A DNA stretch of 64,000 bases from Candidatus Nanosyncoccus sp. (GCA_045650525.1 JAZRRH010000013.1:43881-107880); one strand, 5' to 3'; shown: positions 2,870-24,338, numbered from the stretch's first letter. Numbers and translations are program-made. Notes: generated from the letters alone by a model not told the origin.

Positions 2870-4753
2870 ATGACTTTAGATAAAAATAAAATTCGAAATG
2901 TGGCTATTATTGCGCATGTTGACCATGGTAAGACAACTTTGGTTGATGGGCTTTTGAAACAGTCGCATACTTTTCGCGACAATCAAGCAGAAATGTCGCA
3001 AACTTTGATCATGGATTCAATGGACCAGGAGCACGAACGCGGAATTACGATTACCGCCAAGCAAACCTGTGTTTATTACGATGGGTATAAAATTAATATT
3101 ATCGACACACCTGGGCACGCAGATTTTTCCGGTGAGGTAGAACGTACCCTAAATATGGCGGATGGCGTACTTCTTATCGTTGATGCGCAGGAAGGCCCGA
3201 TGCCTCAGACCAAATTCGTCCTGTCTAAGGCTCTAGATTTAGGCCTAAAGCCAGTGGTAGTAATTAACAAAATTGACAAACCTGCAGCGAGGATTCCGGA
3301 AGTTTTGTCAGAAATCGAATCGCTATTCTTGGAACTTGCAACAGATGAATCGCAGCTGTTTTATCCAGTTTACTATGCGATCGCTCGTGAAGGTAAAGCC
3401 GGCAAGACCACTGAACTCGATGACGATCTGCATGTGATTTTTGAGTCAATCATTAATGATATCCCAGCTCCGTCAGTGGATTCCGATTCCGATTCGGCAC
3501 AACTGCTCGTAGCTGCGCTAACCAGTGATAACTATCTCGGTAAATATTGTATCGGTAAAATTTTCCGTGGCAAGCTAAAAAAAGGACAGAGTGTTAGCAT
3601 TTTACATAAAACAACAAATTCATCATCCGAGGCAGTAAGACTTGGCCTAGCGGCCCGGAGCGCTGCCGAGGAGGATGGATTTGTTGTTTTGCGTGGAAAA
3701 ATTGAAAAACTGTTCATTTATAAGGGGCTTGGCAAGGAAGAGGTTTCCGAAGCAATTGCCGGGGATATTGTAGCCGTAACTGGTGTTTCGGAGGCGAACA
3801 TCGGTGACACTATCGCTACAGGTGACAAGCCTGAGGCTTTGCCAACAATTGAGCTTGAAGCTCCTACTCTTTCTATCTATATTGGCCCAAATACTTCACC
3901 ACTTAAGGGGCGTGAAGGCGAATTTACGACTTCACGACAAATCGCCGAAAGGCTCGAAAAAGAACTCGAGACCAACATTGCTCTTAAAATCCAGCCAGAT
4001 GGACTTGGCTACAAAGTGTCTGGCCGCGGTGAGCTGCATCTCTCAGTTTTGATTGAAACAATGCGACGCGAAGGCTACGAACTAGAAGCTGGTCGCCCAG
4101 AAGTGGTTTATCGTGACAACAATGGCGTGCAAGAAGAGCCAATTGAGTCACTTACCATCGAGGTTGATCCAGAATATGTCGGCGCTGTTTCGCAGGAACT
4201 AGGTATCCGTAAGGCCGAGCTAAAGACCCAGGAACTAACCTCTTCGGGCTCAACGAGGTTTGTCTATGAAATCTCTACCGCTGCCTTGATCGGTCTTAGG
4301 AATAATCTACTTACTGCTACCAAGGGTACAGTCATTATGTCTTCAATCCCATCGGGCTACCGACCGGTAGAAGGGAAATACCGTCCTGAGCGAAATGGCG
4401 CTCTTATATCCTTTGAAACTGGCGTCTCCACAGCCTATGCCCTCGATGCAGCCCAAGCCAGAGGAACTTTGTACATTCCACCTCAGGTAGATGTATATCA
4501 AGGTATGATCGTGGGGCTTTCAAACAAAAAAGATGATCTTGATATCAATGTTTGCCGCGAAAAACAGCTTACCAACATGCGTACGCATGCCTCTGATGGT
4601 GCAATTCAGCTCACTCCTTATACTCAGTTGTCTCTAGAGCAATGTCTAGACTTTCTCTTAGACGACGAGCTCTTAGAGGTCACACCAAAATCTTTGCGCC
4701 TACGTAAACGTCAACTCGACCCTATCAAACGAAAACGCGAAAACCGGGCATAA
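2870..4753 (+). CDS. typA: Translational GTPase TypA/BipA, carrying an in-frame hairpin insertion
   Basis: [31 protein letters not shown] and [11 protein letters not shown]. Confidence 0.97.
3608..3690 (+). repeat. In-frame palindromic insertion in typA
   Basis: AAAACAACAAATTCATC (3608-3624) pairs with GATGGATTTGTTGTTTT (3674-3690), one G-U; encodes [28 protein letters not shown]. Confidence 0.75.
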
Positions 4754-4757
4754 CAAG

Positions 4758-4787
4758 AAATCCACCGGTGAAAGCCTGTGGATTTTT
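4758..4787 (+). terminator. Intrinsic terminator after typA
   Basis: AAATCCAC...GTGGATTT stem followed by a T run. Confidence 0.65.
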
Positions 4788-4804
4788 CGTGATATAATTG
4801 TTTC

Positions 4805-5539
4805 ATGTTGATAGACACGCATTGTCATTTACACGACAGAGAATTCTTTACCGAGGAGCAGGCCGAAGAGATGCTTGGTCGCGCAAAAGAAGCAGGGGTA
4901 GAGAAGATTGTTTGTATTGGCACTTCGCACGATGATTCGCTTGCCGCCGCCGAATTTGCAGCCGCACACGATAATGTTTATTGGACATACGGCATACACC
5001 CCGAAGGGGCAGAGAAGGCCCGTTCCGAAAAAAGGCATTCGGACAGGACCCCCGCGCCTATCGCTATCGGAGAGGTGGGCCTAGATTACCATTATGAAGG
5101 ATATAACAGAGAAGCACAAATAAGATTATTCGAAGAAATGTTGCAGCTAGCTACCGATAATGATCTACCTGTTTCTTTCCATGTGCGCGAAGCTTACGCG
5201 GATTTTTTCCCTGTAGTAGAGAATTTTCCGAAAGTGCGTGGTGTAGTGCATTCTTTTACCGATAATAAGAAAGTTTTGAAGCGAATTTTAAACGAAACTG
5301 AGTATTTTATAGGGGTAAATGGCCTAGCCACCTACTCCACTCTACCCACGCCACCTCTTGAAAGGATTTTCCTCGAAACTGACGCCCCCTTCTTGACTCC
5401 TGAGCCATTTCGTGGTATAATTAATGAACCGGCCTATGTAAGGGAGGTAGCTCGCTGGCTGGCCTCCAAACTGGGTCTAGAGTACAAGATTATAGAGAAG
5501 GAGACCACGAATAATGCAAGAAAACTATTTCGAATATAA
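4805..5539 (+). CDS. tatD: TatD family deoxyribonuclease
   Basis: DTHCHL, GIHP, IGEVGLDY, HVRE, HSFT and LETDAPFL. Confidence 0.94.
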   Translation: MLIDTHCHLHDREFFTEEQAEEMLGRAKEAGVEKIVCIGTSHDDSLAAAEFAAAHDNVYWTYGIHPEGAEKARSEKRHSDRTPAPIAIGEVGLDYHYEGYNREAQIRLFEEMLQLATDNDLPVSFHVREAYADFFPVVENFPKVRGVVHSFTDNKKVLKRILNETEYFIGVNGLATYSTLPTPPLERIFLETDAPFLTPEPFRGIINEPAYVREVARWLASKLGLEYKIIEKETTNNARKLFRI

Positions 5540-5644
5540 AATACCATCTTTTGCGAGAAAAGAGGCTTATAATTTTGAGCCTATCGCTAAAGATAGCCCT
5601 TCTGTCTACGAAGAGCTTAACGCTATTTCGGAGGAGATTGAAAA

Positions 5645-6028
5645 ATGTCGTTTGCAGAATTGTTAAGGTTGCCAAGATTTCCTCTGGGCCTAAAAAATAG
5701 CCCATCACGCTATTCCAGTAAGCCATCTTATGAGGATTTAGTCAATGCCGAGTCCAAGATTGGTAGGACCATTTTTGGGCCAATCCCTAATGGTCATCAA
5801 CGCGAATTTTTCATGGCGCGAAGCAATGTATGGATTTGGCACGAAAGATACCCCGCCAGTGGCAACAGCCTTGGTGAAATGACCATCCGTTACGAAGTGC
5901 GACCAGACGGAGTCTACAAAAAGGCTACCGGTAGTGGCTACATAAAAATTGAAGGCGCTGAGCTTGAAAACTTCCGCAAAGCGACCAAGACTTATCTCGA
6001 ACTTGTCAAATCAAAACTCTATTGCTAA
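5645..6028 (+). CDS. Conserved hypothetical protein
   Basis: 127-aa ORF with SD; globular composition (ESKIGRTIFGPIP...REFF...WIWHE). Confidence 0.7.
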   Translation: MSFAELLRLPRFPLGLKNSPSRYSSKPSYEDLVNAESKIGRTIFGPIPNGHQREFFMARSNVWIWHERYPASGNSLGEMTIRYEVRPDGVYKKATGSGYIKIEGAELENFRKATKTYLELVKSKLYC

Positions 6029-6037
6029 AATAGAGTC

Positions 6038-6595
6038 ATGGATAAGAATAACGAGATTGACGCCGAGGCACTAGCTAGTGCATTTCAGGGTGATAGCAAG
6101 AAAAAACTCTCCCCTGAGAAAGAAACACGAAAGCCCAAGGGCCAAAAGAACACAAAAAAGAAAGTCTCTATAATTGTACTCATTCTTGGAATTATTGCCC
6201 TGATTGCAGGGCTAGTAGTATTAATCATCAACCTCACCAAAGGTGCGGCAATTTCTGACGCCGAGTATCTGGTCTCCGCCAAGGAATGGAGGCTCGAGGA
6301 TGGCACAAATTGCGACAACCAAAAAGACAGTGACGATGAGGCAAACTGCGAATCTGGTGTAATCTGGAAATTTACTGAGGTAGGGAAGGGTACCCTCACC
6401 ACCAATAATCATACTAATGACTATGATTTTGTTTGGGCGCTCGACGGCGACACGCTAAAAATCAACACCGATTGGCTTTATACGCTAAATAATGAATACA
6501 CTTATAAACTTGATAAGAATTCTGGTAAATTAACACTAGAAACTGAAGACGAAAAAGCTACTTTTGTATATATCAAGGACGAAGAGAACAAGTAG
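6038..6595 (+). CDS. Single-pass membrane protein with a small extracellular beta domain
   Basis: Basic N-terminus, TM (IIVLILGIIALIAGLVVLII), then a W/F/Y beta-strand pattern. Confidence 0.75.
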   Translation: MDKNNEIDAEALASAFQGDSKKKLSPEKETRKPKGQKNTKKKVSIIVLILGIIALIAGLVVLIINLTKGAAISDAEYLVSAKEWRLEDGTNCDNQKDSDDEANCESGVIWKFTEVGKGTLTTNNHTNDYDFVWALDGDTLKINTDWLYTLNNEYTYKLDKNSGKLTLETEDEKATFVYIKDEENK

Positions 6596-6622
6596 CCACC
6601 CCTGGAGGATTTATTAAAAAGA

Positions 6623-6648
6623 ATAAAACCGCCTAAAGGCGGTTTTAT
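6623..6648. terminator. Bidirectional terminator
   Basis: ATAAAACCGCC-TAAA-GGCGGTTTTAT between convergent genes. Confidence 0.8.
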
Positions 6649-7397
6649 ATTGCTAAAATTGCGCAGGACTTAATGTCTTTGTACAGCGCGTTTGCTTCAT
6701 TGATTTCTCTCGGGGAAGTTGCCCCTTTGGAAACAATACTTTTGATGATTTCAGAGCTAATTACTTTTCCGTTTATTTTGTACGGGAAAAATGCCTCAGG
6801 AGTTACGACTTCGCCAAGAACCCCGTCCCCAAATCCATAATTTTCGTGAGCGTCAGCTCGACAGTATTCGGAAAGGTATTCAAAGATACCTTCGGAGGTT
6901 TCTTTGCTCTGCATACAGTCATAGATAGACTTCGTCAAAGGAAGGTCCCAGAAATCGTTGTACCCGCACACCCACTTTGGTATGACTTTATGGATGGACT
7001 CGTAATAGTCTTTTCTTTTTTCGATGAAGGGTAGATCCCAGGACAGATCGGCAACGTATTTCTCATTGCCGAACATAAACTCCACCCAACAGTGCGGGGT
7101 CCCGTCCACAGTTCCTTGCACGTATTTTGTGCCGGGGACCATCTTTAAGGCTATCATTGACAGCACCGTCGGTTCACAGTTGAGGCAACAGCCCAAATAT
7201 GAGTCAATTCTCCGGAAGAACCCAATGTTTATATCGAAAAACTTCGATAATTCAATTCCACAGAGATACAAATTCTCCGTTTCCGCTAAAATAGCTTCGA
7301 GGAAAGCCTGATTGGGGTCCAAATGATATTGCTTGACAAAAAAACTGCTCATTTTTAGCTCCTTTCTGAAAGGTTCGCCGTAGATGGCATACGCCAA
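6645..7397 (-). CDS. Hypothetical protein, possible transglutaminase/papain-like fold
   Basis: GCC...HCWVEF...ADLSW spacing resembles a Cys-His-Asp triad. Confidence 0.55.
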   Translation of the reverse strand: MAYAIYGEPFRKELKMSSFFVKQYHLDPNQAFLEAILAETENLYLCGIELSKFFDINIGFFRRIDSYLGCCLNCEPTVLSMIALKMVPGTKYVQGTVDGTPHCWVEFMFGNEKYVADLSWDLPFIEKRKDYYESIHKVIPKWVCGYNDFWDLPLTKSIYDCMQSKETSEGIFEYLSEYCRADAHENYGFGDGVLGEVVTPEAFFPYKINGKVISSEIIKSIVSKGATSPREINEANALYKDIKSCAILAI

Positions 7398-7475
7398 AGC
7401 GATAACAACAGTTACTACAGATTTTAGTATTATATCATAACTTGATTATCTTGGCAAATGTGTTATAATATGCAT

Positions 7476-8639: not shown

Positions 8640-9690
8640 AACCGTTTACGTCGGAATGAGTGGTGGAGTAGATTCAAGTGTTTCGGCTCTACTTTTGAAG
8701 GAACAGGGGTATAACGTCGTGGGAGTTTATATGAAAAACTGGTCCAAGGATCTTCCCGGCATGAAATGTCCTTGGGCGGAAGATCTCGCCGACGCAAAGA
8801 GAATCGCCGTAAAGCTCGGAATTGATTTTTATGTTTGGGATTTTGAAAAGGAATATTTCGATAAGGTGGTCGAATATATGCTTTCGGAATTCAAAAAGGG
8901 AAACACGCCAAATCCCGATATTATGTGCAACCAAGAAATCAAATTCAAGTTATTTTACGAAAAGGCCATGAAAGCCGGAGCTGATTATATCGCGACCGGA
9001 CATTATGCTAGGGTAAAAAATGCAATGCTCCTCCGGGCCGTAGACGAAAACAAAGACCAAACTTACTTTCTTTATCGGATTTCCGAGGAGTCCCTTTCTC
9101 GTACTATTTTTCCAATTGGCGAAATGTTGAAGCCTGAAGTCAAAAAACTAGCGGAGGAGAAGGGTCTCCATAACGCCTACAAAAAAGAATCGATGGGTGT
9201 TTGTTTTGTGGGTGAGGTTGGAATGAAGGACTTTTTGAAGGAGTATATCGACGTGAGCCCAGGTGAAATTCGCGAGATCGAAAGCGACGAGGTGCTAGGG
9301 TATCACGAAGGTGCGGTGTTTTATACGATTGGCCAGAGACACGGACTGTATTTGAATGGCAAAAAAGGTGTAGTGAATGATGGCTTGCCTTATTATGTGG
9401 TCAAAAAAGACATCGATAAAAATGTGGTGTATGTGTCAAAAAACCTTAATCATGAGGCGATTTGGACCAGAGAGTTAGAATTAAAAGATGTTTTTGTGCG
9501 CAGTAAAGATAATCGTTTCGTAGAAGCAAAAGATATCCAGGTGCGACTCCGTCACCGTGCACCGCTCATTCCGGCTAAATTTGACGGCAATAAATTATAC
9601 TTTGCCAAGGAAATCAAGCGCCCGGCAAGCGGCCAAAGTGCCGTAATCTATGACGGCGAAGCTTGCCTTGGTGGCGGAATTATCCAATAA
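8632..9690 (+). CDS. mnmA: tRNA 2-thiouridine(34) synthase MnmA
   Basis: GMSGGVDSS, PNPDIMCN, ATGHY, KDQTYFL and SMGVCF; start taken at ATG 8632. Confidence 0.97.
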   Translation: MAKTVYVGMSGGVDSSVSALLLKEQGYNVVGVYMKNWSKDLPGMKCPWAEDLADAKRIAVKLGIDFYVWDFEKEYFDKVVEYMLSEFKKGNTPNPDIMCNQEIKFKLFYEKAMKAGADYIATGHYARVKNAMLLRAVDENKDQTYFLYRISEESLSRTIFPIGEMLKPEVKKLAEEKGLHNAYKKESMGVCFVGEVGMKDFLKEYIDVSPGEIREIESDEVLGYHEGAVFYTIGQRHGLYLNGKKGVVNDGLPYYVVKKDIDKNVVYVSKNLNHEAIWTRELELKDVFVRSKDNRFVEAKDIQVRLRHRAPLIPAKFDGNKLYFAKEIKRPASGQSAVIYDGEACLGGGIIQ

Positions 9691-11984: not shown

Positions 11985-13208
11985 TTATTTTTGGAGGATT
12001 TTGGCGATTTTGTTTCTTAATTTGTTTTCTTCGGGGGCTCCTGCTAGGGTATCTACGCCAACGCGAAGTAGGCCAAGAGCTGTAGCATAAGAGTGGTCAA
12101 GGTCAAATTTTTCTTCGTTTGTGAGGTTTGGGAGCTCTGCGACGTCAATCAAGTGGATAACCGGGCGACGCGAAAACGCCAAAGATTTATACCAGTCAGA
12201 AACGGCAAGAGTTTCTTGGATCATAGATAAGCTAGCGCCACCGCCGCATAGTAGGATGTTTCGTGGGAGACTGCCGACGTTTTCGAATTCTTCGAGGGCC
12301 ACTTCTACGCCAGTCAACCATACGCTAAGGTTGCGCGAAAGGGCAGTTTCGACTTTGGCTTTGACACGATCGTCGAGCTTGGTTGTATCAAAATCTAGCT
12401 TGTATTGCTCGGCGGCTTCATGGTCAACACCGAGAGACTCCGCAACTTGATGAGTAAAGCTGCGGCCGCCAATAGAGAACATCTTGGTGCCTTCGACGCC
12501 GCCGTCCTCGACTACTGCAATATCGGTGGTGCCACCGCCAATATCCATAACTATGCCAGAAAAACTTGAATCAAGGTCGTCACCTAGACATGCACGGCAA
12601 ACAGCAAATGGCTCTACGGCAACAGTGAGAAGGTCGAGGTTTAGCTCGGCGCAAACTTTTTCGATGGCGGCCACATGAATAAGAGGAGCAAAAGCGGTAT
12701 AAAACTGAATTACGATATCTGAGCCTTTGAATCCGATGGGGTTGCTGATCTTGTATCCATCAATAATGAGGGAGACAATCGCGGAATTAATTAAGCGTAC
12801 TTCGACGTTTTCGTTGCCGGTTTCGAGTGCTACGGTTTTTTTTGCTACTTCGCCGGATTTTTGTTGGACTTTTTTGATAATTTCTTGCATTTCATTATCA
12901 GTGATAGGCTTGTTGGGGTTCTTGCGATTGTAGTGGACAGTGGTGGTTGAGCCTTTTATTAGCTCGCCTGCTACTCCAACTACAGTAAGATCGGCTTTTT
13001 CGCCGGCTTGTTTTTCTACTTTAATAAGAGCATCTTCACACACGTTGACTACAGCTGGAATATCAGAAATAGCGCCGCCCCACATATTGCCTTCGGCCTG
13101 CTTGGCTTTGGCAACACCTAAAACCTCAAGATCGCCTTTGCGATTTGGGCGCGCAAGGACAGCTTTGACGAATTCCGTGCCAATATCTAATCCTAGTATA
13201 GTGCTCAT
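11985..13208 (-). CDS. FtsA-like actin-fold ATPase
   Basis: LGLDIGTEFVKA, MDIGGGTTD and LCGGGA actin-fold motifs. Confidence 0.85.
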   Translation of the reverse strand: MSTILGLDIGTEFVKAVLARPNRKGDLEVLGVAKAKQAEGNMWGGAISDIPAVVNVCEDALIKVEKQAGEKADLTVVGVAGELIKGSTTTVHYNRKNPNKPITDNEMQEIIKKVQQKSGEVAKKTVALETGNENVEVRLINSAIVSLIIDGYKISNPIGFKGSDIVIQFYTAFAPLIHVAAIEKVCAELNLDLLTVAVEPFAVCRACLGDDLDSSFSGIVMDIGGGTTDIAVVEDGGVEGTKMFSIGGRSFTHQVAESLGVDHEAAEQYKLDFDTTKLDDRVKAKVETALSRNLSVWLTGVEVALEEFENVGSLPRNILLCGGGASLSMIQETLAVSDWYKSLAFSRRPVIHLIDVAELPNLTNEEKFDLDHSYATALGLLRVGVDTLAGAPEENKLRNKIAKILQK

Positions 13209-14023
13209 ACTTTTATTATATCATATTTACCGACGGGGATATCACCCAGTTCGTATTTGCCAAAATGAGTGCGGTGGAGCTTGGTGACTTTGTATCCTAA
13301 GGCCGCAAAAGTACGGCGGATTTGGCGGTTGCGGCCCTCGGTCAAAACTACCGTGTATTGAGCTGGCACCACCGTCTCTTTCGGGTCGCGTCCGGTCGGC
13401 CTGTTTGCCTTCGGCAATTCGCGTCCCAAGGGGCGAGCGCCACGGGCGGCCGGCGCTAACTCTCGCGCTGCCGCGCTCCGAAATCCCCTCAAGAGAGGTG
13501 ATGCCAGCTCATTCCTCAGAACTTTGAACTGGCTGGGGCCGTCGTCAAGCATGACGCCGTAATCTGAAATCATTTGTTGATGTAGTGGTTCCAAAGGTTT
13601 GTCAAGTTCAACTTCATAGATCTTGTTTTTGCGGAACTTTGGGTGGGTCATTTGATAGGCAAAATCGCCATCGTTAGTTAAAAGAATTAAGCCGGAAGAA
13701 TCTTTGTCGAGACGACCTACGGTTTTTAATTTGTGGTATTTCTTGGGCAGGATTTCATAAATGGTGGGGGCGGTTTTTTGTGAACGTCGCGAGCATACAT
13801 ATCCAACTGGTTTATGAAAAGCTAAATAAAGATATTCCGTATCAAACGGAATTATCTTGTTATTATAGCATACTTTGCTTGATTTGTCAATTCTATCCCC
13901 TAGGATCGCTTGGCGTCCGTCAACGGTGATTTGATTGGAGGATATCAATTCATCCGCTTCGCGCCTGGAGACACCTAATCGTTCGGCTAAGAATTTGTTC
14001 AGTCTAACCAGTGAGTTTTCCAT
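13205..14023 (-). CDS. S4-domain pseudouridine synthase (RluB/RsuA family) with an in-frame hairpin insertion
   Basis: RLNKFLA, SRREADELI, HKPVGY, VGRLDKDSSGL and EGRNRQIRR. Confidence 0.93.
   Translation of the reverse strand: MENSLVRLNKFLAERLGVSRREADELISSNQITVDGRQAILGDRIDKSSKVCYNNKIIPFDTEYLYLAFHKPVGYVCSRRSQKTAPTIYEILPKKYHKLKTVGRLDKDSSGLILLTNDGDFAYQMTHPKFRKNKIYEVELDKPLEPLHQQMISDYGVMLDDGPSQFKVLRNELASPLLRGFRSAAARELAPAARGARPLGRELPKANRPTGRDPKETVVPAQYTVVLTEGRNRQIRRTFAALGYKVTKLHRTHFGKYELGDIPVGKYDIIKV
13359..13511 (-). repeat. In-frame palindromic insertion (153 bp) in the pseudouridine synthase gene
   Basis: TGAGCTGGCACCACC...GGTGATGCCAGCTCA 15-bp IR with 1 mismatch; GC-rich; shares CGCGTCCCAAGGGGCG with the obgE insertion. 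Confidence 0.85.
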
Positions 14024-14033: not shown

Positions 14034-14585
14034 CTATGCTACTGGTGCTCCTGGCTGAGCTTCTACTGTTGCCGGAGCAGGAGCCGGAGCGGCTGGAGCT
14101 ACTGGGGTAGGAGCATGAGCGGCTGGAGCCGGAGCAGCTGGGGCTGGGGCGGCTGGAGCTGGGGCGGCTGGAGCCGGAGCGGCATTTAGCGCACCTGGTA
14201 TAGGTGCAGCTGCAACACGATCGCCCAAAGTTTCGTGAATAGTATTAATAACATCCTCGATGCCAACTTGTGATTTAACAAGATACTTATTGGCACCAAG
14301 ACGTTCGCCGCGTTGTCTCTGATCATCGGCAGAGAGGGCAGTCATCATGATAACCTTGATATTTGCGGTCTCTGGGGTTGATCGCAAAATATCCAGCATA
14401 TCAAACCCGGATATTTTTGGCATCATCACGTCGCTTAGAATTAAATCGGGTTTTTCGCGCACAGCAACAGCAAGTGCTTCTTCGCCATCTCCTGCTGATA
14501 CTACTTCGTAGCCTTCGGCGGTGATGCGGATACTGTAAATTTCTCGTAGGTTTGCGTCGTCTTCGACTACCATTACTTTACTCAT
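14034..14585 (-). CDS. Stand-alone response regulator receiver domain with a Pro/Ala tail
   Basis: VMVVEDD, LSDVMMP, MTA and KS receiver motifs; no output domain; GGAGG SD before ATG 14585. Confidence 0.9.
   Translation of the reverse strand: MSKVMVVEDDANLREIYSIRITAEGYEVVSAGDGEEALAVAVREKPDLILSDVMMPKISGFDMLDILRSTPETANIKVIMMTALSADDQRQRGERLGANKYLVKSQVGIEDVINTIHETLGDRVAAAPIPGALNAAPAPAAPAPAAPAPAAPAPAAHAPTPVAPAAPAPAPATVEAQPGAPVA
14071..14183 (-). repeat. Imperfect 15-nt tandem repeat encoding (APAAP)n
   Basis: Recurrent GGAGC/GGGGC-GGCTGG units. Confidence 0.75.
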
Positions 14586-16299
14586 TATTTCCTCCATTTA
14601 TTTTATTATCAATTGTTGGGGCTTGGTTCACCGGTGACACTGGCGGTGGTGTCGCCGAGCCTGGCGCTACAGGCTGTGCCGGCGGGGGTACTGGGGGTGC
14701 CGGCGATAAATTCGGAACTGTCGGGGTAACGTGAGCTGGAGTTGGAGTAGCTGCGGGAGCCATAGGAGTTGGTATAGGGGCGGGAGCTGGCGCCGCTTGA
14801 GTTACAGCTGGGGCAGCCGCGGGAGCCATCGGAGTAGGTGCGGCTGCGGGAGCCATCGGAGTAGGTGCGGCCGGGGTGGCCGGAGTCGGTGCGACTGGCG
14901 CTGTTGGAACAGGTGGTGTCACAGGAGTAGCTGGTGCGGCTGGGGCCATCGGAGCCGTAGGGGCAGCTGATGCGGCTGGGGCCATCGGGGCCACGGGGGC
15001 AACTGGGGCCGCAGGTGCCACCGGAGCTACCGGAGCAGCGGAAGCAATGAATGGATTTTCGGATGGCGGCTTAACCGGACCACCGATAAGCTGATTTTGA
15101 ATTTCTTGATTTTTTACCACAATCATGCGTTTTTCGTATTCGTCTGCAGTTAGACGCGGAAGGGAAACATAAAAGGTTGTTCCTTCACCAAAAGCGGACT
15201 CGGCCCAGACTTTGCCACCCATAGCTTCGACGCGTTGTTTTACTAGATAGAGGCCTAGGCCAGTGCCACCAATTGTCCTGGTGTCAGAATTATCGACGCG
15301 GTAGAATTTTTGGAAAATATGAGTAAGATCTTCGGCGGAAATCCCGATACCGGTATCGGTGACATTGATAAGTACACGGTCGCCGTCGCCACGCACATTC
15401 ACATAGACCGAACCACCCTCAGGGGTGTATTTGATAGCATTTTCAATTAGATTATCTACGATTTCTTGAAGGAAAGTAGTATCGACAAAACTATAAACGA
15501 CCTGTTGCATCTTGCGACCGGCCTCTACCGATGATTCGTTTGAGCCAAATGTGAGTGTGAGCTTGGATTCTTGAGCGTGCTGCATATGATTACTCGTGAT
15601 CGACTCAATTAATTCGGTCATTTCGACTGGCTCTAAGTGAAGCTTACTCTTGCCATCATCTAGCTTGGTGACATCTAGTAGGTCTTGGAATAGTTTGCCG
15701 AGATGTTTTGAAGCTTTTTCGGCAGCAGAAAGATAACCACGAGCGCGTTCGTCGATAGTGGCCGTCTGCGGATTCAGGGCCAAGGATAAATATCCATCAA
15801 TAGTTGCCACTGGGGTACGCATTTCGTGCGAGGCTGTAGAAATAAACTCGGTTTGCTCGCCTTCTTCTTCGAGTTCTTTGGTGATATCACGGAAGGTTAT
15901 AATACGGTCGGTATTCACCCCGTCGGTCTGGATGACAGAGATAGAGACAGGGAAACGTTTGTCCGAAGAAGTATTAATAAGTGAAGCCTGATAATGTTCG
16001 AGTGGCTGGTTGGTCTTGATTGCTTGGGTTAATTGGTTTTCTTGCTCGGAGAGCTCTCGACCCTCTTTACTCTCTAGTTTGATAACTAAGCCATAATCTA
16101 GCCCAACAGCGTTACTTGCTGAGCTAGTGCCAGTCATAAGAACTGCAGCAGGATTAATAAATTTAACGGCACCATTTTTGTCAATTATTACTACGCCATC
16201 GTGAAGTGATTTTAGGACCAAATCGGACATGGCAGAATTATTGCTATCGCCACCATTTGGCTGTCCGTTTGTGGTTTTATCGTGCTTAAACATTTTCAT
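14578..16299 (-). CDS. Cytoplasmic PAS sensor histidine kinase with a long Pro/Ala tail
   Basis: PAS-like N-terminus, ASHEMRTP (H box), NLIENAIKY, DTGIGI and GTGLGL; no TM. Confidence 0.92.
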   Translation of the reverse strand: MKMFKHDKTTNGQPNGGDSNNSAMSDLVLKSLHDGVVIIDKNGAVKFINPAAVLMTGTSSASNAVGLDYGLVIKLESKEGRELSEQENQLTQAIKTNQPLEHYQASLINTSSDKRFPVSISVIQTDGVNTDRIITFRDITKELEEEGEQTEFISTASHEMRTPVATIDGYLSLALNPQTATIDERARGYLSAAEKASKHLGKLFQDLLDVTKLDDGKSKLHLEPVEMTELIESITSNHMQHAQESKLTLTFGSNESSVEAGRKMQQVVYSFVDTTFLQEIVDNLIENAIKYTPEGGSVYVNVRGDGDRVLINVTDTGIGISAEDLTHIFQKFYRVDNSDTRTIGGTGLGLYLVKQRVEAMGGKVWAESAFGEGTTFYVSLPRLTADEYEKRMIVVKNQEIQNQLIGGPVKPPSENPFIASAAPVAPVAPAAPVAPVAPMAPAASAAPTAPMAPAAPATPVTPPVPTAPVAPTPATPAAPTPMAPAAAPTPMAPAAAPAVTQAAPAPAPIPTPMAPAATPTPAHVTPTVPNLSPAPPVPPPAQPVAPGSATPPPVSPVNQAPTIDNKINGGNNE

Positions 16300-16349
16300 T
16301 TATATATATATTTTAACACAAGCATCAAAAAATGTGTTATATTTTATAT

Positions 16350-18221
16350 ATGAATAAGGATGTTATTTATATAGAACCCGAAGATGACATCACGGATGTT
16401 ATCGCTAAAATCGAGAAATCAAAAGAAAAAATAGTAGCCTTAGTCCCCCCGAAAAAAGCGGGTGTCTTTAGGAGTATTGTCAACATCAAACTTATTTATA
16501 AATCTGGCAAAGCTGCCGAAAAAACCATTGTGCTTGTTACCGTGGATCCATCCATTATCAAACTTGCTGCTTCCACTAAATTACCCGTAACAAAAGATCT
16601 CAACACGCCTCCAGCCATCCCGACCGTCGATGATGAAGGTGAGCCAGAAAACGTCTCAAATGAAGATTTGATTGAAGAGCCAGATGGTAGCGTCGAGGCA
16701 AAGGAAAATTCCGATGATTCGGACAAAAAATCAACTAGCAAAAAGAAAACAGACAACGACGAAGATGATGATGGCGATGAGGAAGATACTGAAGACGAAG
16801 AAGATGAAGAGAAAGAAGAGCCTAAGACTAAATCTAAGGGCCTTTCTTCAAAAAAGAAGAACTTAAAGGAAACTTCGAACAAGTTTATCGCTTGGATCAA
16901 AGACCATAAAAAACTCGCTATTTGTGGCGGTATTGGTATTGTTCTTTTGATAGTATTTATGATTTGGGCATTCGTGATTGCCCCATCTGTCAGCGTGACC
17001 GTGGGCGTGAAGGCGTCATCGAACAACTTTTCTGAAGCTTTGACTTTTACAACTACTTTGTCCGAAGAAAATGCCAGTGAGGGTAAGTTTTATCTTGAAG
17101 AAAAGAAAATCGAAACCCCACAAACAATAGAATTTGAAGCCACTGGTAAGAAAAACGTTGGCGAAAAAGCGAGTGGTGACGTCGTCGTGTATACATATTT
17201 TAGTGCAAAAGGCGCCTATTCTATCGAATCAGGAACAAGGTTTTCGATCAATAACCTAAATTATCTTGCTGATGCCGATTCGACACTGTATTGGGATGGA
17301 GCTCAATCGAGCTGTGAAAATAAAAAAGAAGACGACCCGATTATCGTAGATGGAGTCGTCCACTGTCTTAAATCCGGTAGAATAAAAGTCACTGCATCCG
17401 AAGCAGGTTCTAAGTATAATATTTCTGCTTCAAGCGCTGGCTGGACTACGGTTTTCAGCACTTTAAATGTCTACTCAGACAAAGCGATGGCTGGTGGTAC
17501 TGACCAAGAAATCACTGTCGTCCAGCAATCTGATGTCGATAAAGCAAAGAGTCAATTGACCACCAATAGCCTTGACGAAAACAAAGCTTCTCTCATGGAT
17601 GAGATCAGTGACGATATGCTAGTTATCGAATCTAGCTTAGCGCAGAACACCTCCGATCCAGAAATCTCACCAAAAGTTGGTGAAGAGGTTAAAGATGGCG
17701 CAAAAGCAACTCTTAAAGTTACTACAACTACTTCGATCTTTGCGATTGACAAAACCAAAGTTATTGAGTTTATTACCGAAAAAGCAAATCTCAAAGATGA
17801 CCAGAAGATTTACGAGATGAAGGATCCGTTTATCGAAAACTTCCTCAAGACAGATAATGGATATACTGGTAAGTTAAAGACCTCTTACCTCACTGGTCCG
17901 AATTTGACCGAAAGTAGCATAGCTGAACTCGTCAAGGGCCACGGCATAGGTGATGCAACACATATGCTTAAAGATGTCGATGGAGTAGTCGATGCCAGAA
18001 TTGACGGCTCGTTCCCGTGGGTAAGTTCCGTACCAGGTAATACCAACAAAATCACCGTAACTCTTGAGATTAAAGACCAAAACGGCAACAAGGTCGAACA
18101 AAAAGAAGAGGAAGATTCTAAAAAATCTGAGGACTCTGATGATTCTGATGAATCAAAGGATTCAAAGGAATCCAAAGACTCCAAGGACTCCAAAGAAAAG
18201 AAAGACAGTAAGACTCCTTAA
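16350..18221 (+). CDS. Membrane protein: N-terminal alpha/beta domain, acidic linker, TM, extracellular baseplate-J-like domain
   Basis: IYIEPEDDITDVI N-terminus, D/E-rich linker, one TM, ATGKKNVGEKASG...VTASEAGSKYNI...AMAGGTD; the domain name is inferred from recall of CPR homologs. Confidence 0.7.
   Translation: MNKDVIYIEPEDDITDVIAKIEKSKEKIVALVPPKKAGVFRSIVNIKLIYKSGKAAEKTIVLVTVDPSIIKLAASTKLPVTKDLNTPPAIPTVDDEGEPENVSNEDLIEEPDGSVEAKENSDDSDKKSTSKKKTDNDEDDDGDEEDTEDEEDEEKEEPKTKSKGLSSKKKNLKETSNKFIAWIKDHKKLAICGGIGIVLLIVFMIWAFVIAPSVSVTVGVKASSNNFSEALTFTTTLSEENASEGKFYLEEKKIETPQTIEFEATGKKNVGEKASGDVVVYTYFSAKGAYSIESGTRFSINNLNYLADADSTLYWDGAQSSCENKKEDDPIIVDGVVHCLKSGRIKVTASEAGSKYNISASSAGWTTVFSTLNVYSDKAMAGGTDQEITVVQQSDVDKAKSQLTTNSLDENKASLMDEISDDMLVIESSLAQNTSDPEISPKVGEEVKDGAKATLKVTTTTSIFAIDKTKVIEFITEKANLKDDQKIYEMKDPFIENFLKTDNGYTGKLKTSYLTGPNLTESSIAELVKGHGIGDATHMLKDVDGVVDARIDGSFPWVSSVPGNTNKITVTLEIKDQNGNKVEQKEEEDSKKSEDSDDSDESKDSKESKDSKDSKEKKDSKTP
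18126..18197 (+). repeat. Imperfect 9-nt tandem repeat encoding (SKD/SKE)n
   Basis: TCAAAGGATTCAAAGGAATCCAAAGACTCCAAGGACTCCAAAGAA. Confidence 0.6.
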
Positions 18222-18228
18222 GGCTAAG

Positions 18229-19713
18229 ATGAAAATAATTGGGCTAGATGTTGGCGAGAAACGAATTGGGGTGTCGAGAGCAGATTCGGACACCCGGATT
18301 GCTGTACCGGTCGGCTTTATTGAGGTAGATGGCAGCGGGTCGGAATGGCAGGAAATCGCTAGAATCGCAAGATTGAACAATACAAACTTGTTTATTCTTG
18401 GCATGCCGCGTAGCAATGAAGGGAATGAGACCGCTCAGTCGCTTTATGTTCGTAATTTCGCCAAAACATTAACAGAGAAACTACCCGGGGCGCGTGTAAA
18501 GTTTCAGGATGAATCACTCACCTCTGTTATAGCCGAGGAACGCCTCAAATCTCGCGAAAAAAACTATGTAAAAGGCGATATCGATGCAGAGGCAGCTACA
18601 ATTATTTTGCAGGATTTTCTCGAGGGGCTTAGCGCCGCCTCTAATATGGCCAGCGCGAGTAGCCCCACCTCTGATGACGCTGATGAGGATACACAGCAGT
18701 CTGGCATAAAATCCGCCATAAAAGGTGCCGGTATGGCCGTAAGCGGTGTCGCAAAAAAAGAGGCCGATAGAGCCAAGTTGAACTCGGCGAAGGTTAAACA
18801 TAAGGTAAAAACCTCCACAAAGCTAATATCTGGAGGTGTAGCGCTAGTTATTTTAATAATTGGGGCTATCGGCGGTTTTTTTCTAATTAACCACATCAAG
18901 GAAGAAAATGCGAAAAAACGCGCCGAGGAGTATGCTAGACAAGAGGCCGAAATGAAAGCGGCGACTTTTGATTTTACGATTCGCCCAGGGGAAACCATCT
19001 ACGATATCAGAGATAATTTGACAAAGGTTGAGCGCGGCAAGCCCGTCGGTGCCGACGAGGAACTTCCTCATTTCACTCGCCAAGAGATCGATGCGGCACT
19101 TGCAAAGAATTATAACTATACTTTTTTGCAGGGGCGACCAGAAGGGGCTACCCTTGAGGGTTACCTTTTTCCGGAGACTTTGAATTTTTATGGTGAAAGC
19201 ACAGTAGAAGAGGTAATAGACGCGTTTCTTAAGGAGACTGAGAGGGTAATTCAAGAAAATGATCTTATAAACAAATACAGCGCACAGGGATTGTCTCTAT
19301 TTGAAGGGATTACTTTGGCATCGGTGGTACAAAAAGAAGCTTCTTCGCCAGAGCAGCCAACCGTGGCTCAGGTGTTTTTATCGAGGCTCTCCTCGGGAAT
19401 GCTCCTCGGGAGCGATGTAACAGTAACTTATGCTCTTGACACAATTGACCCCGATCGAGAGATTTACAAAGATAATCAGAATGCTTTAAAGATAGACTCT
19501 TGTTACAACACAAGGACCCACAGAGGCCTCCCCTGTGGCCCTATCTCCAATCCGGGGCTTTCGGCGCTTCTTGCTGTAGCTAATCCATCAGATACAGCTT
19601 ATCTTTACTTCTTGACAGGAGACGATGGTATGATGTATTATGGTTATACAGAGTCTGAGCATATCCAGAACATCTACAACCATTGCCAAGAACTCTGTAA
19701 TGTATCATTATGA
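18229..19713 (+). CDS. Fusion of RuvX/YqgF (N-terminal) and endolytic transglycosylase MltG (C-terminal)
   Basis: IIGLDVGEKRIGV...DESLTS...DAEAATIILQ, then linker, TM and LEGYLFPETL...LASVVQKEA...YNT...GPISNPG...YLYF in one uninterrupted frame. Confidence 0.88.
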   Translation: MKIIGLDVGEKRIGVSRADSDTRIAVPVGFIEVDGSGSEWQEIARIARLNNTNLFILGMPRSNEGNETAQSLYVRNFAKTLTEKLPGARVKFQDESLTSVIAEERLKSREKNYVKGDIDAEAATIILQDFLEGLSAASNMASASSPTSDDADEDTQQSGIKSAIKGAGMAVSGVAKKEADRAKLNSAKVKHKVKTSTKLISGGVALVILIIGAIGGFFLINHIKEENAKKRAEEYARQEAEMKAATFDFTIRPGETIYDIRDNLTKVERGKPVGADEELPHFTRQEIDAALAKNYNYTFLQGRPEGATLEGYLFPETLNFYGESTVEEVIDAFLKETERVIQENDLINKYSAQGLSLFEGITLASVVQKEASSPEQPTVAQVFLSRLSSGMLLGSDVTVTYALDTIDPDREIYKDNQNALKIDSCYNTRTHRGLPCGPISNPGLSALLAVANPSDTAYLYFLTGDDGMMYYGYTESEHIQNIYNHCQELCNVSL

Positions 19714-20804
19714 CAAGACGCAAGAAGAAATTTGATTTTAGGAAAATTCAGAAGGCTTTGCCTTATTTGTTAACTGGTATCGTGACGCTAGCGGTTGTTT
19801 CTGTCGGCTCCATAGATAAACAAAATAGTGACGTCAACCTCAGTCTTGATTCTTTTGCAGCTAGCGACTATAACGTCTCTGTTGACCAGCTATCAGAGCT
19901 CTATGTTATTGCAGATCTATCTGATGCACTCAGCCTAGCTAGTGCCTCTGATGCCGCTTCCAACTACGTTATTACAAATACTATGTATAATGCTGGTATT
20001 TCGCTGGCTGGTAAGATAGAAAAACCAAGCCTTACCAATATTTCTGCTTCGCGTGGCGTAGTTGAGCATACAGTAGCCGAAGGTGAGACTATTGATACGC
20101 TCGCCTCAAAATACAACGTCTCTGCGGATCAGATACGTTGGTCTAACGGGCTCAAAACCACAGAGGTAGGAGTAGGTACAGTGCTTTATATCCCAAGTAG
20201 GCCTGGAATTGTTTATACCGTTAAATCTGGCGATACGATCGACTCTATCGTAGAAAAATATGGTTCGAATTCAGAAGAAATCATCGCTCTCAATGATTTG
20301 GAATTATCTGGTATTACTGAAGGGGCGAGAATCTTAATTAAAGATGGTACTCTGCCAGAAAAAGAACGCCCAGAATATGTGGCCCCTGTTGTACAGAGGA
20401 GGACTTCATCAAATTCATCAAGTTCGTCATATACCTATACCTATCTCGGTGACACCTCTGAGCGACAAAATATCCAAGTGGTAGGATACTATCGCATCGG
20501 ACACGGTCAATGTGTGGACTGGGCATCCTATATGAGGCCAGACCTCGGCGGATTGATGCTTGGCAACGCCAACGCTTGGGCGAGGAATGCCGCTGCTAGA
20601 GGATATTCTGTAAATCGTAGCCCTTCGGCTGGTGCGATTTTCCAGACTTCATCTGGTTGGTATGGTCACGTCGGTTATGTTGAAGCAGTCAACGGAGATG
20701 GCTCTATTACTGTAACAGAGATGAACTATAGCTATGTTCCTTATCGCGTGATTCGCGCAATTATTCCGGCGGATAAGGTGGGGAATTTTAACTATATCCA
20801 TTAA
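19710..20804 (+). CDS. LysM x2 plus CHAP domain peptidoglycan hydrolase
   Basis: HTVAEGETID and YTVKSGDTID LysM repeats; GQCVDW...GNANAW...GHVGYVE...EMNY CHAP motifs. Confidence 0.92.
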   Translation: MTRRKKKFDFRKIQKALPYLLTGIVTLAVVSVGSIDKQNSDVNLSLDSFAASDYNVSVDQLSELYVIADLSDALSLASASDAASNYVITNTMYNAGISLAGKIEKPSLTNISASRGVVEHTVAEGETIDTLASKYNVSADQIRWSNGLKTTEVGVGTVLYIPSRPGIVYTVKSGDTIDSIVEKYGSNSEEIIALNDLELSGITEGARILIKDGTLPEKERPEYVAPVVQRRTSSNSSSSSYTYTYLGDTSERQNIQVVGYYRIGHGQCVDWASYMRPDLGGLMLGNANAWARNAAARGYSVNRSPSAGAIFQTSSGWYGHVGYVEAVNGDGSITVTEMNYSYVPYRVIRAIIPADKVGNFNYIH

Positions 20805-20818
20805 ATATTGATGAAATA

Positions 20819-21002
20819 AAATCTCTTAACGCTATTTTTCGTTCGCGCTTCGCTTCGCTCCAGGAAAATCTTTATAAATTTTTTAACGGAAATTACTCGT
20901 GACTCACGTCTGCCTACGCGGTTCGCACGAGCTAATTTCCTAAAATTTATAAAGATTTTCTTGGGCTTGCTCAATGCTCACAAAAACAGAGTTAAGAGAT
21001 TT
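20819..21002. repeat. Intergenic nested palindrome (184 bp), homologous to the obgE/trmD insertions
   Basis: Nested IRs AAATCTCTTAAC/GTTAAGAGATTT, GAAAATCTTTATAAATTTT/AAAATTTATAAAGATTTTC, GGAAATTA/TAATTTCC and CTCGTG/CACGAG; the arms match the trmD element arms. Confidence 0.85.
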
Positions 21003-21006
21003 CATC

Positions 21007-22572
<1,566 letters not shown>

Positions 22573-22588
22573 TTATAAAATAAAATGC

Positions 22589-22617
22589 TTGACAACTAAT
22601 TGGTTATGCTTTATGCT
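22589..22617 (+). promoter_or_regulatory. Sigma70-type promoter with no ORF directly downstream
   Basis: TTGACA-17 nt-TATGCT. Confidence 0.7.
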
Positions 22618-22623
22618 TGTATT

Positions 22624-22768
22624 AAGCTGATACGCTTCACAGGGGTTCCACTGACTTTAGTGGAGTGTGGAGACTCATTAAAAACAAAAACAGCGGATTA
22701 AAACAAACCAATGTGCCCCAGGGTGGGCGCGTAGCAGCGGGGAAAGCGGCCGAAAGGTCGCTTTTTTT
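22624..22768 (+). ncRNA. Candidate orphan small RNA (about 145 nt)
   Basis: Own promoter; 5'/3' pairing GCTGATACGC/GCGTAGCAGC; internal hairpins; terminator AGCGGCC-GAAA-GGTCGCT plus T7. Confidence 0.55.
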
Positions 22769-22804
22769 GCGGCCGCATGGTATAATTCTCGGTAAAGGAG
22801 GCTC

Positions 22805-23002
22805 ATGGACCAAGAAAAAATAATCGATCAGTTAGAGGATGCGGTACTAGACAGGCTACCGGCTGACGCTGTAAAAAAACTAGCAGATTTAACCGACTTA
22901 GAAGGTGATCGCACGAAAGAGGCTCAGGCAATATTAGACGAGCATGGCGTCGACGTCGAGGCTGTCGCCAAGGATTATTTCAAGGAGGAAAACAATGACT
23001 AA
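22805..23002 (+). CDS. Small acidic hypothetical protein
   Basis: 65 aa, AAGGAG SD, overlaps the next start. Confidence 0.7.
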   Translation: MDQEKIIDQLEDAVLDRLPADAVKKLADLTDLEGDRTKEAQAILDEHGVDVEAVAKDYFKEENND

Positions 23003-23525
23003 CCCCAATAGATCAGGATTTACAAGCCACGAAGGTGATGGGCCAATCAAACATATCGGCATCAATAATAGCAATATCAACCACGATCAAGAGCTTCTTG
23101 ACCTGGAGGCTATCGAAAAGGATATAAAGGACCACAGAGAGCGAAACCAAGAGCTCGGCAAGATGAGCAATGAAGTTATTGCAAACAAAAACAAAGCCAA
23201 GCGTGGACCACTGAAGACAATTGTCAAAGGCGTAGCGGCCACTCTTATCACTATTGGGGTCATTGCTGGTATTGGAAGCCTCGAGAAAAACTCGCTCGAA
23301 GAACAGAAAAAGGCCGAAGAAGAAATGCATAATAAGAATCTTGCGGATTCGCCTATGCATTTTAATATTGGGGCTGATTCAAGCACGCTCATCGGGTCAA
23401 ATGGTAAAGTTTATACCGTAGAGAACAATGGCAGGAGCGAAGAGGAAGTCAAAAACGCACTAATCGGCATGATGGATGACGATATAAAGAATACAGAGGA
23501 GCGCGAGGCTCAATTTGGAGAATAA
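22995..23525 (+). CDS. Hypothetical single-pass membrane protein
   Basis: AGGAGG SD before ATG 22995; TM GVAATLITIGVIAGIG. Confidence 0.7.
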   Translation: MTNPNRSGFTSHEGDGPIKHIGINNSNINHDQELLDLEAIEKDIKDHRERNQELGKMSNEVIANKNKAKRGPLKTIVKGVAATLITIGVIAGIGSLEKNSLEEQKKAEEEMHNKNLADSPMHFNIGADSSTLIGSNGKVYTVENNGRSEEEVKNALIGMMDDDIKNTEEREAQFGE

Positions 23526-24338
23526 ATGATTAAGTTTACAATAATTACACTATTTCGCGAGGCGATTGAGCCATATCTCAAGACCTCAATGATGTGGAAA
23601 GCCACCGAGAAGGGTCTTGCAGAGTTTGATTTCGTAAACCTGAGGGATTTTGGCCTGGGGCCACACAAATCCGTGGATGATGCGCCATACGGGGGTGGAG
23701 ACGGTATGCTTCTCCGGTGCGAGCCGGTTTTTGCCGCGATTGAATCAGTAAAAGCAAAAGACCCCGAGGTAAAGGTTATTCTACCTACCCCTGTAGGGGA
23801 GATATGGAACCAAGGGATGGCGAGAGAGTTCGCTGGGGGTCAGCCGGTAGATTTTGCAAACATTGAGCAAACCCGAGAAAAATCTGAGGAGGCTAGTCGA
23901 GACGAGTACGAAACTGGAATTTCGGCGCAGTCCCGATTAGTCGACGAAGATTTTTCCCGGAGTGCAGCGAAGCGTGAGCAAAATCTACCTACTGACCACT
24001 CTACCACTCACTACATCATCTTGTGTCCACACTATGAGGGGTACGATGAGAGGATTTTGTCGATCGTGGACTATAAAATTTCGCTTGGCAAATACGTTTT
24101 GACTGGGGGCGAGCTTCCAGCATTGATCATTATCGATTCCGTAGTGCGGCTTATCCCAGGGGTACTTGGCGGTGAACAGTCTGCCGAAATTGAGTCTTTT
24201 TCGGATGGAGATAACCTGGAATATCCGCAATATACTCGTCCAGAGGATTTTAGAGGGATGAAGGTGCCAGAGGTTCTTCTCTCGGGCAACCATGGCGAAA
24301 TCGCTAAATGGCGCGAGGAGCATAGTGGGACTGTTTGA
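23526..24338 (+). CDS. trmD: tRNA (guanine-N1)-methyltransferase TrmD with an in-frame hairpin insertion
   Basis: TLF, VDDAPYGGGDGM, YEGYDERI, YVLTGGE, RLIPGVLG, YPQYTRP and VPEVLLSGNH. Confidence 0.96.
   Translation: MIKFTIITLFREAIEPYLKTSMMWKATEKGLAEFDFVNLRDFGLGPHKSVDDAPYGGGDGMLLRCEPVFAAIESVKAKDPEVKVILPTPVGEIWNQGMAREFAGGQPVDFANIEQTREKSEEASRDEYETGISAQSRLVDEDFSRSAAKREQNLPTDHSTTHYIILCPHYEGYDERILSIVDYKISLGKYVLTGGELPALIIIDSVVRLIPGVLGGEQSAEIESFSDGDNLEYPQYTRPEDFRGMKVPEVLLSGNHGEIAKWREEHSGTV
23838..23997 (+). repeat. In-frame palindromic insertion in trmD (family A)
   Basis: GGTCAG-CC-GGTAGATTTTGC...GCAAAATCTACC-TA-CTGACC; the 144-bp core 23846-23989 has a perfect 12-bp IR. Confidence 0.92.

Follow-up and report, generated by a model that had tools for sequence, protein, structure and literature searches.

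In-frame palindromic elements in housekeeping genes of a Candidatus Nanosyncoccus genome and their possible spread by replication template switching

Palindromic segments inserted in typA, an rluB-like gene, obg, and trmD were analyzed in a 64,000-nt stretch of DNA (hereafter, the window), which corresponds to contig C13:43881-107880 of a Candidatus Nanosyncoccus genome (Saccharibacteria, ruminant gut; 741,443 bp in 24 contigs, approximately 43% G+C, 96% complete). These segments belong to dispersed repeats that lie in frame in at least 14 housekeeping genes of the genome, are lineage-specific, and were gained or lost between sister genomes that are 94-96% identical in DNA, and new modules arrive at the loop center of hairpins that already exist. 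We consider it probable (about 0.6) that they constitute a genus-wide selfish repeat system similar to the Rickettsia palindromic elements (RPEs), made up of small, non-autonomous, modular palindromic elements that are translated through and spread by replication template switching. An earlier note on this DNA had proposed that a non-autonomous, RPE-like hairpin family was recently active and supplied housekeeping proteins with extra peptide loops. This core reading was supported.

Hairpin segments in the window

Six segments, five within genes and one between genes, were folded with DNA parameters (Table 1). All of them (typA, rluB, obg inserts 1 and 2, trmD, and the intergenic palindrome) folded as one long, often branched hairpin, as had been claimed for these positions. 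The folding energy of the rluB insert was approximately -57 kcal/mol in its 231-nt context, and the genome background was -12.9 +/- 5.2 kcal/mol (mean) per 150 nt. The arms of the typA insert, which is located within domain II of TypA, were 28 nt long and 86% complementary. In comparison with empty orthologs, the five in-gene segments were in frame, as the earlier note had read them, and added the numbers of residues listed in Table 1. Obg is 419-435 residues long when both sites are empty versus 514 here, TrmD is 213-232 residues long when empty versus 270 here, and RluB orthologs without the insert have 221-235 residues versus 272 here.

Most of the relationships proposed among the segments were confirmed. 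Obg insert 2 and the trmD insert were 88% complementary over 136 nt and 93% identical over 114 nt. The rluB insert and obg insert 1 had the core CCGCCCCTTGGGACGCG in common (2 matches in the window versus 0 expected by chance), and both belong to a family with 14 copies in the genome. In the intergenic palindrome, whose arms lie at 20801-20839 and 20982-21020, both arm modules of about 33 nt were those of the trmD/obg2 family, inverted in orientation and enclosing a different tip that is AT-rich; a second copy of this palindrome was found at C13:140110-140320, and stop codons occurred in five of its six frames. On the other hand, the link to typA through the shared 10-mer CGGAGCGCTG proved weak. 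It is not the real relationship of the typA insert, whose tip module recurred, at 92.6% identity, at the tip of an unrelated AT-rich intergenic palindrome (C12:12313-12339). The suggestion of a single family thus stood in part: all segments belong to repeat families, but these are several modular families sharing an architecture.

A search of window positions 1-26000 against Rfam gave no family match at E <= 0.1, and a known RNA family was rejected. The stretch 22589-22768, which had been flagged earlier as an orphan small RNA, likewise had no Rfam match at E <= 0.1. The AlphaFold2 model of Obg was poor (48 orthologs; mean predicted local distance difference test score (pLDDT) of 52, predicted template modeling score of 0.29), with pLDDT values below 50 for the inserts as for large parts of the real domains, and was not used as evidence. 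Tandem GC-rich direct repeats of the GCTGGAGC type with a 15-nt period were also observed at 14047-14181 and 14738-14968, within the minus-strand open reading frames (ORFs) 14034-14597 and 14578-16299. These repeats are coding sequence of low complexity and not hairpin elements.

Table 1. Host genes and palindromic elements in the window. Host protein domains were assigned by Pfam scans.
Feature	Position	Strand	Description
typA/bipA host gene	2870..4753	+	627 aa; GTP_EFTU, GTP_EFTU_D2, EFG_C, BipA_C
typA in-frame hairpin insert	3608..3690	+	~25 aa; tip module 3637-3662; outer stem private, AT-rich
rluB-like pseudouridine synthase host gene	13205..14023	-	272 aa; S4, PseudoU_synth_2
rluB in-frame GC-rich hairpin insert	13360..13511	-	~45 aa; 14-copy family; GC 0.63-0.70
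Intergenic palindrome	20811..21004	.	Between convergent stops of LysM-CHAP gene and obg
obg host gene	21007..22551	-	514 aa; GTP1_OBG (split in 2 stretches), MMR_HSR1, DUF1967
obg insert 2	21253..21446	-	~43 aa; linker between G domain and C-terminal domain; conserved core 21282-21417
obg insert 1	22106..22260	-	~45 aa; within Obg fold
Module C	22151..22185	-	35-nt mini-hairpin nested in tetraloop of obg insert 1
trmD host gene	23526..24338	+	270 aa; tRNA_m1G_MT split in 2 stretches
trmD in-frame insert	23838..23997	+	~50 aa; obg2-family copy in same reading frame; core 23850-23985

Alleles with and without the elements in a sister genome

The sister assembly GCA_052829825.1 had DNA 90-96% identical to that of the window, and its Obg was 99% identical and carried both inserts. 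A search of a collection of 5.8 billion proteins gave no Obg allele nearer than that of the sister. Obg insert 1 (including module C), obg insert 2, and the rluB and typA inserts were shared by the two genomes. Four sites that are filled here, namely the intergenic palindrome, trmD, ileS, and uvrB, were empty in the sister. This difference in presence and absence bears out the claim that the elements were recently active.

At the intergenic site, the sister lacked 194 nt, with the convergent stop codons 8 nt apart and no direct duplication. Sister TrmD had 220 residues, and 20 nt replaced window positions 23834-24003. IleRS had 986 residues in the sister versus 1028 here (42 residues shorter; 95% nucleotide identity). 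The extra DNA in ileS consisted of a GC-rich core and a perfect 13/13-nt inverted copy of the host right flank, and the palindrome continued into an inverted repeat, TTTGAA/TTCAAA, already present in the empty allele. UvrB had 669 residues in the sister versus 701 here (32 residues shorter; 98% amino acid identity), and the extra 96 nt of uvrB were an 81-nt element plus an inverted copy (16/19 nt) of the host left flank. Because the uvrB site was empty in two further relatives and held a different element in a third, the insertion is a gain on the branch of this genome. No direct target duplication was observed at the sites for which the empty allele was defined at the base level (intergenic, ileS, and uvrB), and inverted flank copies were present in ileS and uvrB.

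The core of the uvrB element was identical over 72 nt to the copy in gatA, 10 kb away, with one extra G at each end that changes the frame. The trmD copy was located 2.4 kb from obg insert 2 in inverted orientation, and the intergenic relative approximately 250 nt from obg insert 2. These spacings hint at local copying.

The shared elements differed from those of the sister at 6 positions in 551 nt, compared to 42 in 1114 nt of flanking coding DNA (chi-square of approximately 9.5; 98.9% versus about 96.2% identity). The differences were 0/194 nt for obg insert 2 (21253-21446), 3/176 for obg insert 1 (22095-22270), and 3/181 for the rluB insert (13345-13525), and the flanking coding identities were 96.7% and 95.7% for obg and rluB, respectively. 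This conservation is the best support for the alternative that the hairpins or their peptides are selected, either as adaptive surface loops or as structures in DNA or RNA through which replication, transcription, or translation of the host genes is regulated. The G+C content of the elements, which is far above the genome mean, would also fit this alternative, for which evidence on both sides is given below.

The stretch of the window most diverged from the sister was an envelope gene block at 14831-20810 (89.8% identity, 84 gap positions), containing a two-component pair, a large membrane protein, a RuvX-MltG fusion, and LysM-CHAP.

Empty sites and turnover across the genus

For the host genes, orthologs were sampled in 18 congeneric genomes and in 12 further genera belonging to the order. 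Empty-site orthologs were sought and were found for all four host genes (obg, trmD, rluB, and typA), both among other congeneric species and outside the genus. The typA site was empty in 25 of the 30 relatives and occupied by other elements in three congeners, the rluB site was empty in most relatives, and the trmD insertion loop held at least five other elements in congeners.

For Obg, 80 extra loci were added, and 110 orthologs were aligned. Among 99 in-genus genes, site 1 was empty in 34, where the bare loop is IVKRDGKV, carried a short remnant in 20, and carried a full insert in 45. The inserts at site 1 were of at least eight recurring types, several of which matched elements in other genes of the present genome. 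Members of the obg2/trmD family, whose frame never varied, were located at Obg site 2 in approximately ten species, and two other species had them at site 1. When the insert types were mapped onto a tree of the Obg core, which represents a single gene and is weakly resolved, they were scattered and close neighbors differed. Evidence against selection on the hairpins or peptides is that, in close species, one loop may hold unrelated elements or be vacant and that all other genera are without them.

Orthologous inserts were present in metagenome-assembled genomes of several unrelated projects, and an independent assembly had the obg1, obg2, rluB, and typA inserts at identical length. An assembly artefact was thus rejected. 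In a DNA search with concatenated elements against 300 genomes of the order, in which two candidates were scored per genome, the families gave no match beyond the genus. With this limit of two candidates, their restriction to the genus is provisional. As a separate observation, a genome of another genus of the order had a 57-residue insertion at the loop of Obg site 1, with an unrelated sequence and weak hairpin potential. This loop may be permissive across the order.

Modular and nested architecture of the elements

The folded copies had a common plan, with shared GC-rich hairpin modules of 30-80 nt at the tip and a copy-specific stem outside. The outer stems differed in every copy and the inner modules alone were shared; the conserved terminal inverted repeats characteristic of miniature inverted-repeat transposable elements (MITEs) were therefore not found.

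Nesting was observed in the methyltransferase gene, whose element consists of a UvrB-type element plus an extra module in the loop of the main hairpin. Module C (GACCGCCCCTTGGGACGCGGACGACCCGAAGGGTC) was present in three 100% identical copies, in argS, the methyltransferase gene, and obg insert 1. The three copies occupy different carrier hairpins, where each one interrupts the center of a tetraloop (GGCG or AACG) as an insertion of 36 nt. Six other species have orthologous obg1 elements without module C, and the UvrB-type and ValRS-type elements are carriers empty of it. Similarly, the ileS and intergenic inserts sit in the loops of host inverted repeats that pre-existed in the empty allele.

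In a separate observation on the methyltransferase (C24:30553-31842), the insert and about 90 surrounding residues were 100% identical to those of a relative (P0134), for an overall identity of 85%, and a separate 12-residue indel distinguished the two proteins at the N-terminus. The identical segment may reflect recombination or a recent transfer.

Repeat families and coding context in the whole genome

Additional copies in the genome were sought by BLAST and found for every element of the window. When the genome was compared with itself, over 60 repeat groups emerged, of which many were palindromic. The rluB insert was tied by BLAST to nine other loci, and its family, shared with obg insert 1, had 11 of its 14 copies within ORFs of 272-969 residues. 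These encode ValRS, TsaD, ArgRS, QueA, RluB, Obg, UvrB, GatA, PepN (aminopeptidase N), a UvrD/PcrA helicase, and a methyltransferase. The remaining large repeat groups were strictly intergenic. One such family, with eight copies of about 340 nt, was located at C4:51946-52301, C4:64152-64491, C12:22959-23299, C13:29647-29919, C14:60456-60777, C16:207-542, C21:10441-10799, and C22:8715-9074.

A fold-energy scan of the whole genome in 150-nt windows detected 133 strong hairpin regions. Twenty-five of these, at least 60 nt long, were inside ORFs of at least 250 residues, and at least 15 of them, in 14 genes, were accepted as clear inserts. Although non-coding DNA makes up 12% of the genome, 51 strong hairpin regions were strictly intergenic. 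The G+C content was 0.55 for in-ORF hairpins versus 0.46 for intergenic ones (p = 2e-4), and the in-ORF hairpins had more open frames.

The DNA of the 14-copy family was read in at least three frames or orientations. The GatA and QueA copies were read as RSLARRG.APAA.GDGPAGR, the UvrB and methyltransferase copies shared another peptide, and the PepN copy was read in reverse orientation. Module C was stop-free in all six frames and was read in all three sense frames. Since the peptide changed from host to host for the same DNA, it is the DNA that is repeated and not a protein domain. Selection for a peptide would hardly be expected to yield one DNA module read in three frames into unrelated peptides. 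The RPE trait of one peptide per family held for the obg2/trmD family and failed for the 14-copy family and module C.

All hairpin regions counted inside long ORFs preserved the frame of the host. The obg2/trmD family was always in the same open frame, and its intergenic relative was the one that contained stop codons. Because the frame is always kept, the stop-containing relative occurs only between genes, and the family with a single open frame is always in that frame, we infer that the inserts are translated as parts of the host proteins. These same features make it very improbable that the inserts behave like introns or inteins, being lost after transcription or translation so that the mature proteins lack them. 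Strong hairpins could in principle serve as processing sites for such removal, but excision would not require every in-gene insert to be in frame and stop-free or a stop-containing relative to be confined to intergenic DNA. In addition, the Rfam search described above gave no match to an intron or ribozyme family, and no intein-like domain was found for the inserts of 25-55 residues in the Pfam scans of the host proteins.

Private stems and covariation

In the private outer stems, one arm was host flank, the opposite arm was an inverted copy of that flank, and the two arms changed together. The extent of the stems into host codons was measured by explicit arm alignments, as the outermost pair of the minimum-free-energy fold was too noisy.

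In obg insert 1, the right arm of the outer stem was formed by the host I-L-L-A-D codons. The ten orthologous copies compared at this site had conserved host codons, (I/F)-L-A-D, as their right arm and new sequence as their left arm. The third positions of the host codons GCC/GCT (Ala) and GAT/GAC (Asp) were mirrored in the left arm by GGC/AGC (Gly/Ser) and ATC/GTC (Ile/Val), respectively, and six pairs of the stem were changed on both sides. Covariation was 0.183, compared to 0.123 +/- 0.017 in shuffled alignments (0/500 reached the observed value) and at most 0.106 with a slid partner. In one species (L138), the conserved host Leu is Cys, which makes the palindrome at Obg site 1 perfect. This change resembles the outcome of arm-to-arm copying more than that of protein-level selection.

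The outer stem of the obg2/trmD family was examined in 15 copies across species. Its left arm was the end of a G-domain helix, K-Q-V-C/Y-F. The 16-bp stem, which is private, differed in almost every copy, yet it was 90% paired, and 15 of the 16 pairs were changed on both sides. Covariation was 0.818 versus 0.245 in shuffled alignments (0/500 reached the observed value) and at most 0.16 when slid. Examination of the stems for covariation, which the earlier note had suggested, gave a strong signal in both cases.

Stem pairing kept through many compensatory changes is what selection on a structure would also produce. However, the sense-strand mismatches in 80 palindromes were 164 G:T versus 233 A:C, counts that the composition of the coding strand may bias. 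As G:T was not in excess over A:C, there was no sign of an mRNA hairpin being maintained. Together with the lack of an Rfam match, the Cys in L138, the turnover at single loops, and the reading of one module in three frames, this makes selection of the hairpins or peptides an improbable explanation. The stems show the trait of a template-switch product, since their new sequence copies adjacent DNA in inverted form and thereby creates or perfects a hairpin.

Survey of mobilizing and hairpin-processing enzymes

The domains Y1_Tnp, TnpB zinc ribbon, DDE_Tnp_1, rve, and RVT_1 had no match in the 96%-complete genome, in a search limited to these families, and control genomes matched each of them. 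The search for a Y1 or IS200/IS605 TnpA proposed by the earlier note therefore found none, and mobilization by an IS200/IS605 system was rejected, as was a retroelement, since no reverse transcriptase was detected. No multi-copy insertion sequence was found in the genome; the larger repeats were genes for surface proteins, leucine-rich repeat (LRR)-like proteins, pilins, and transporters. Among repeat genes observed in passing, C14:53650-58576 contained three tandem paralogous genes of about 500 residues with signal-peptide-like N-termini, and long LRR-like repeat proteins with the SLTSLPDGSFDTSNITT motif broke the assembly at the contig ends of C3, C11, C17, and C18.

Y1_Tnp was found in 7 of 121 genomes of the genus. 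Full-length IS200/IS605-type Y1 genes occurred in a few congeners with larger assemblies (0.9-1.2 Mb), for example at G323:C4:44075-44431, and are either residents or contamination.

SbcD is the nuclease subunit of a complex that destroys long hairpins in E. coli. It was not found (TIGR00619) in the present genome or in 100 of 101 genomes of the order, and 13 of 14 control genomes matched. ExoVII was present in the genome.

Template switching and a transposase as sources of the elements

Copy-choice in replication would be the simplest process that yields a module together with an inverted flank copy in a hairpin loop. In the template-switching process that we favor, a nascent strand would stall at a hairpin loop, and its 3' end would copy a module from another hairpin. 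The strand would then fold back, copy its own flank as the opposite arm, and rejoin its template, so that no dedicated transposase would be needed. Later copying from arm to arm would keep the stem symmetrical, and the lack of the SbcCD hairpin nuclease would allow palindromes to persist or be tolerated. Elements within genes would be translated through as extra loops or linkers, and the survivors there would be the copies that add a multiple of three bases without a stop codon. Such a filter would favor GC-rich modules in genes and leave AT-rich ones between genes.

This process resembles quasipalindrome template-switch mutagenesis in E. coli, associated with Ripley and with Lovett and co-workers, in which copy-choice at a hairpin, within one strand or between strands, reportedly perfects imperfect palindromes and makes inverted copies of adjacent sequence. 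The private stems look exactly like the products attributed to it. To our knowledge, however, it is a point-mutation or short-patch process, and we know of no dispersed repeat families colonizing genes by this route.

A more specific version of this process is put forward tentatively. In it, 35-80-nt GC-rich mini-hairpins would be transposase-free mobile DNA that enters the loop centers of hairpins by copy-choice, carriers would grow by fold-back copying of their flanks, and ongoing arm-to-arm copying could overwrite conserved host codons. A replication error mode would thereby have become a self-sustaining parasite that remodels loops of essential proteins.

The main rival is that these are classical transposase-mobilized elements of the MITE, REP, or palindrome-associated transposable element type, in which an enzyme acting in trans cuts and pastes or copies the modules and the private stems arise afterwards. 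The enzyme could be Y1/RAYT-like or another nuclease; it might have gone unrecognized, have been lost from this genome, or be supplied by a phage or the host bacterium. The three identical 35-nt copies of module C, at the same position within different tetraloops, look site-specific, and loop targeting without target duplication is reportedly also typical of single-strand HUH systems; Y1_Tnp genes do occur in seven genomes of the genus. Nevertheless, we regard this rival as unlikely. None of the five searched families was present in the genome, even though the uvrB insertion arose on its own branch, and no multi-copy insertion sequence was found. The termini are private and not conserved, and inverted rather than direct flank duplication is not a known transposase signature. 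The precedents named in the earlier note therefore fared differently: the comparison with RPEs holds, and the HUH/REP systems do not apply as a mechanism.

Several points weigh against the selfish, template-switching interpretation. The greater conservation of the shared elements relative to their flanks is not what a purely neutral parasite predicts. For the intergenic palindrome, the flank of the empty allele does not account for the outermost stem. The evidence of scattered insert types comes from the tree of one weakly resolved gene. The copying mechanism is read from its products, and translation through the inserts from frame conservation. The enzyme survey covered five families, and a novel or trans-acting enzyme, for instance from the host bacterium or a phage, could act instead. 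Finally, SbcD is absent across the whole order, and its loss therefore cannot account for families confined to the genus.

Comparison with known palindromic repeats

The closest parallel is provided by RPE-1 to RPE-10 (Ogata et al. 2000, 2002; PMC10969869, PMC2996958). As the cited passages describe them, RPEs are, like the present elements, dispersed palindromes about 100-150 bp long that occur in a reduced genome and are inserted in frame in many unrelated housekeeping genes that are left intact, with no known transposase. The two systems occur in unrelated lineages and are likened by their features and not by DNA similarity. Each RPE family has, according to the same passages, one conserved peptide, whereas one module here is read in several frames. 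Further differences from RPEs as described there are that the tips are modular and nested with insertion into hairpin loops, that the outer stems are private, strongly covarying inverted copies of host flanks, and that turnover is very fast, with the same loop holding many families across the genus.

Protein-coding palindromic repeats are also known in Wolbachia and Methanocaldococcus jannaschii (PMC2996958). In the portion of that work cited here, small genomes carry these 'selfish' palindromes, which span several codons, in frame within housekeeping genes, as in the present case; flank-derived stems and nesting set the present elements apart from these repeats as cited. Bacterial MITEs and REP/BIME sequences (Correia, ERIC, BOX, and REP with RAYT; PMC10969869, PMC3733652) are short hairpin repeats that are likewise non-autonomous, multi-copy, and occasionally intragenic. 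They are mostly intergenic, however, and have termini conserved across each family, usually a direct target duplication or a fixed target, and a cognate transposase; none of these last three features was found for the present elements. In the literature on Saccharibacteria and Patescibacteria, no description of palindromic in-frame elements or miniature inverted-repeat elements in the phylum was found.

Implications for Saccharibacteria

Saccharibacteria genomes are among the smallest of free-replicating cells, yet the present one has about 130 strong hairpins in 741 kb, and essential enzymes such as tRNA synthetases, Obg, TrmD, and UvrB carry insertions of 25-55 residues that differ between near-identical genomes. 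Genetic tools exist for cultivated Saccharibacteria (PMC10633639), and with the exact before-and-after alleles of the sister genomes they make the mechanism testable. The inserts make proteins appear more divergent than they otherwise would, and they can mislead sequence alignments, phylogenies based on marker genes, and predicted structures for the phylum. If the template-switch interpretation is true, this would be a natural system in which a replication error mode acts as enzyme-free mobile DNA and provides a steady source of new protein loops.

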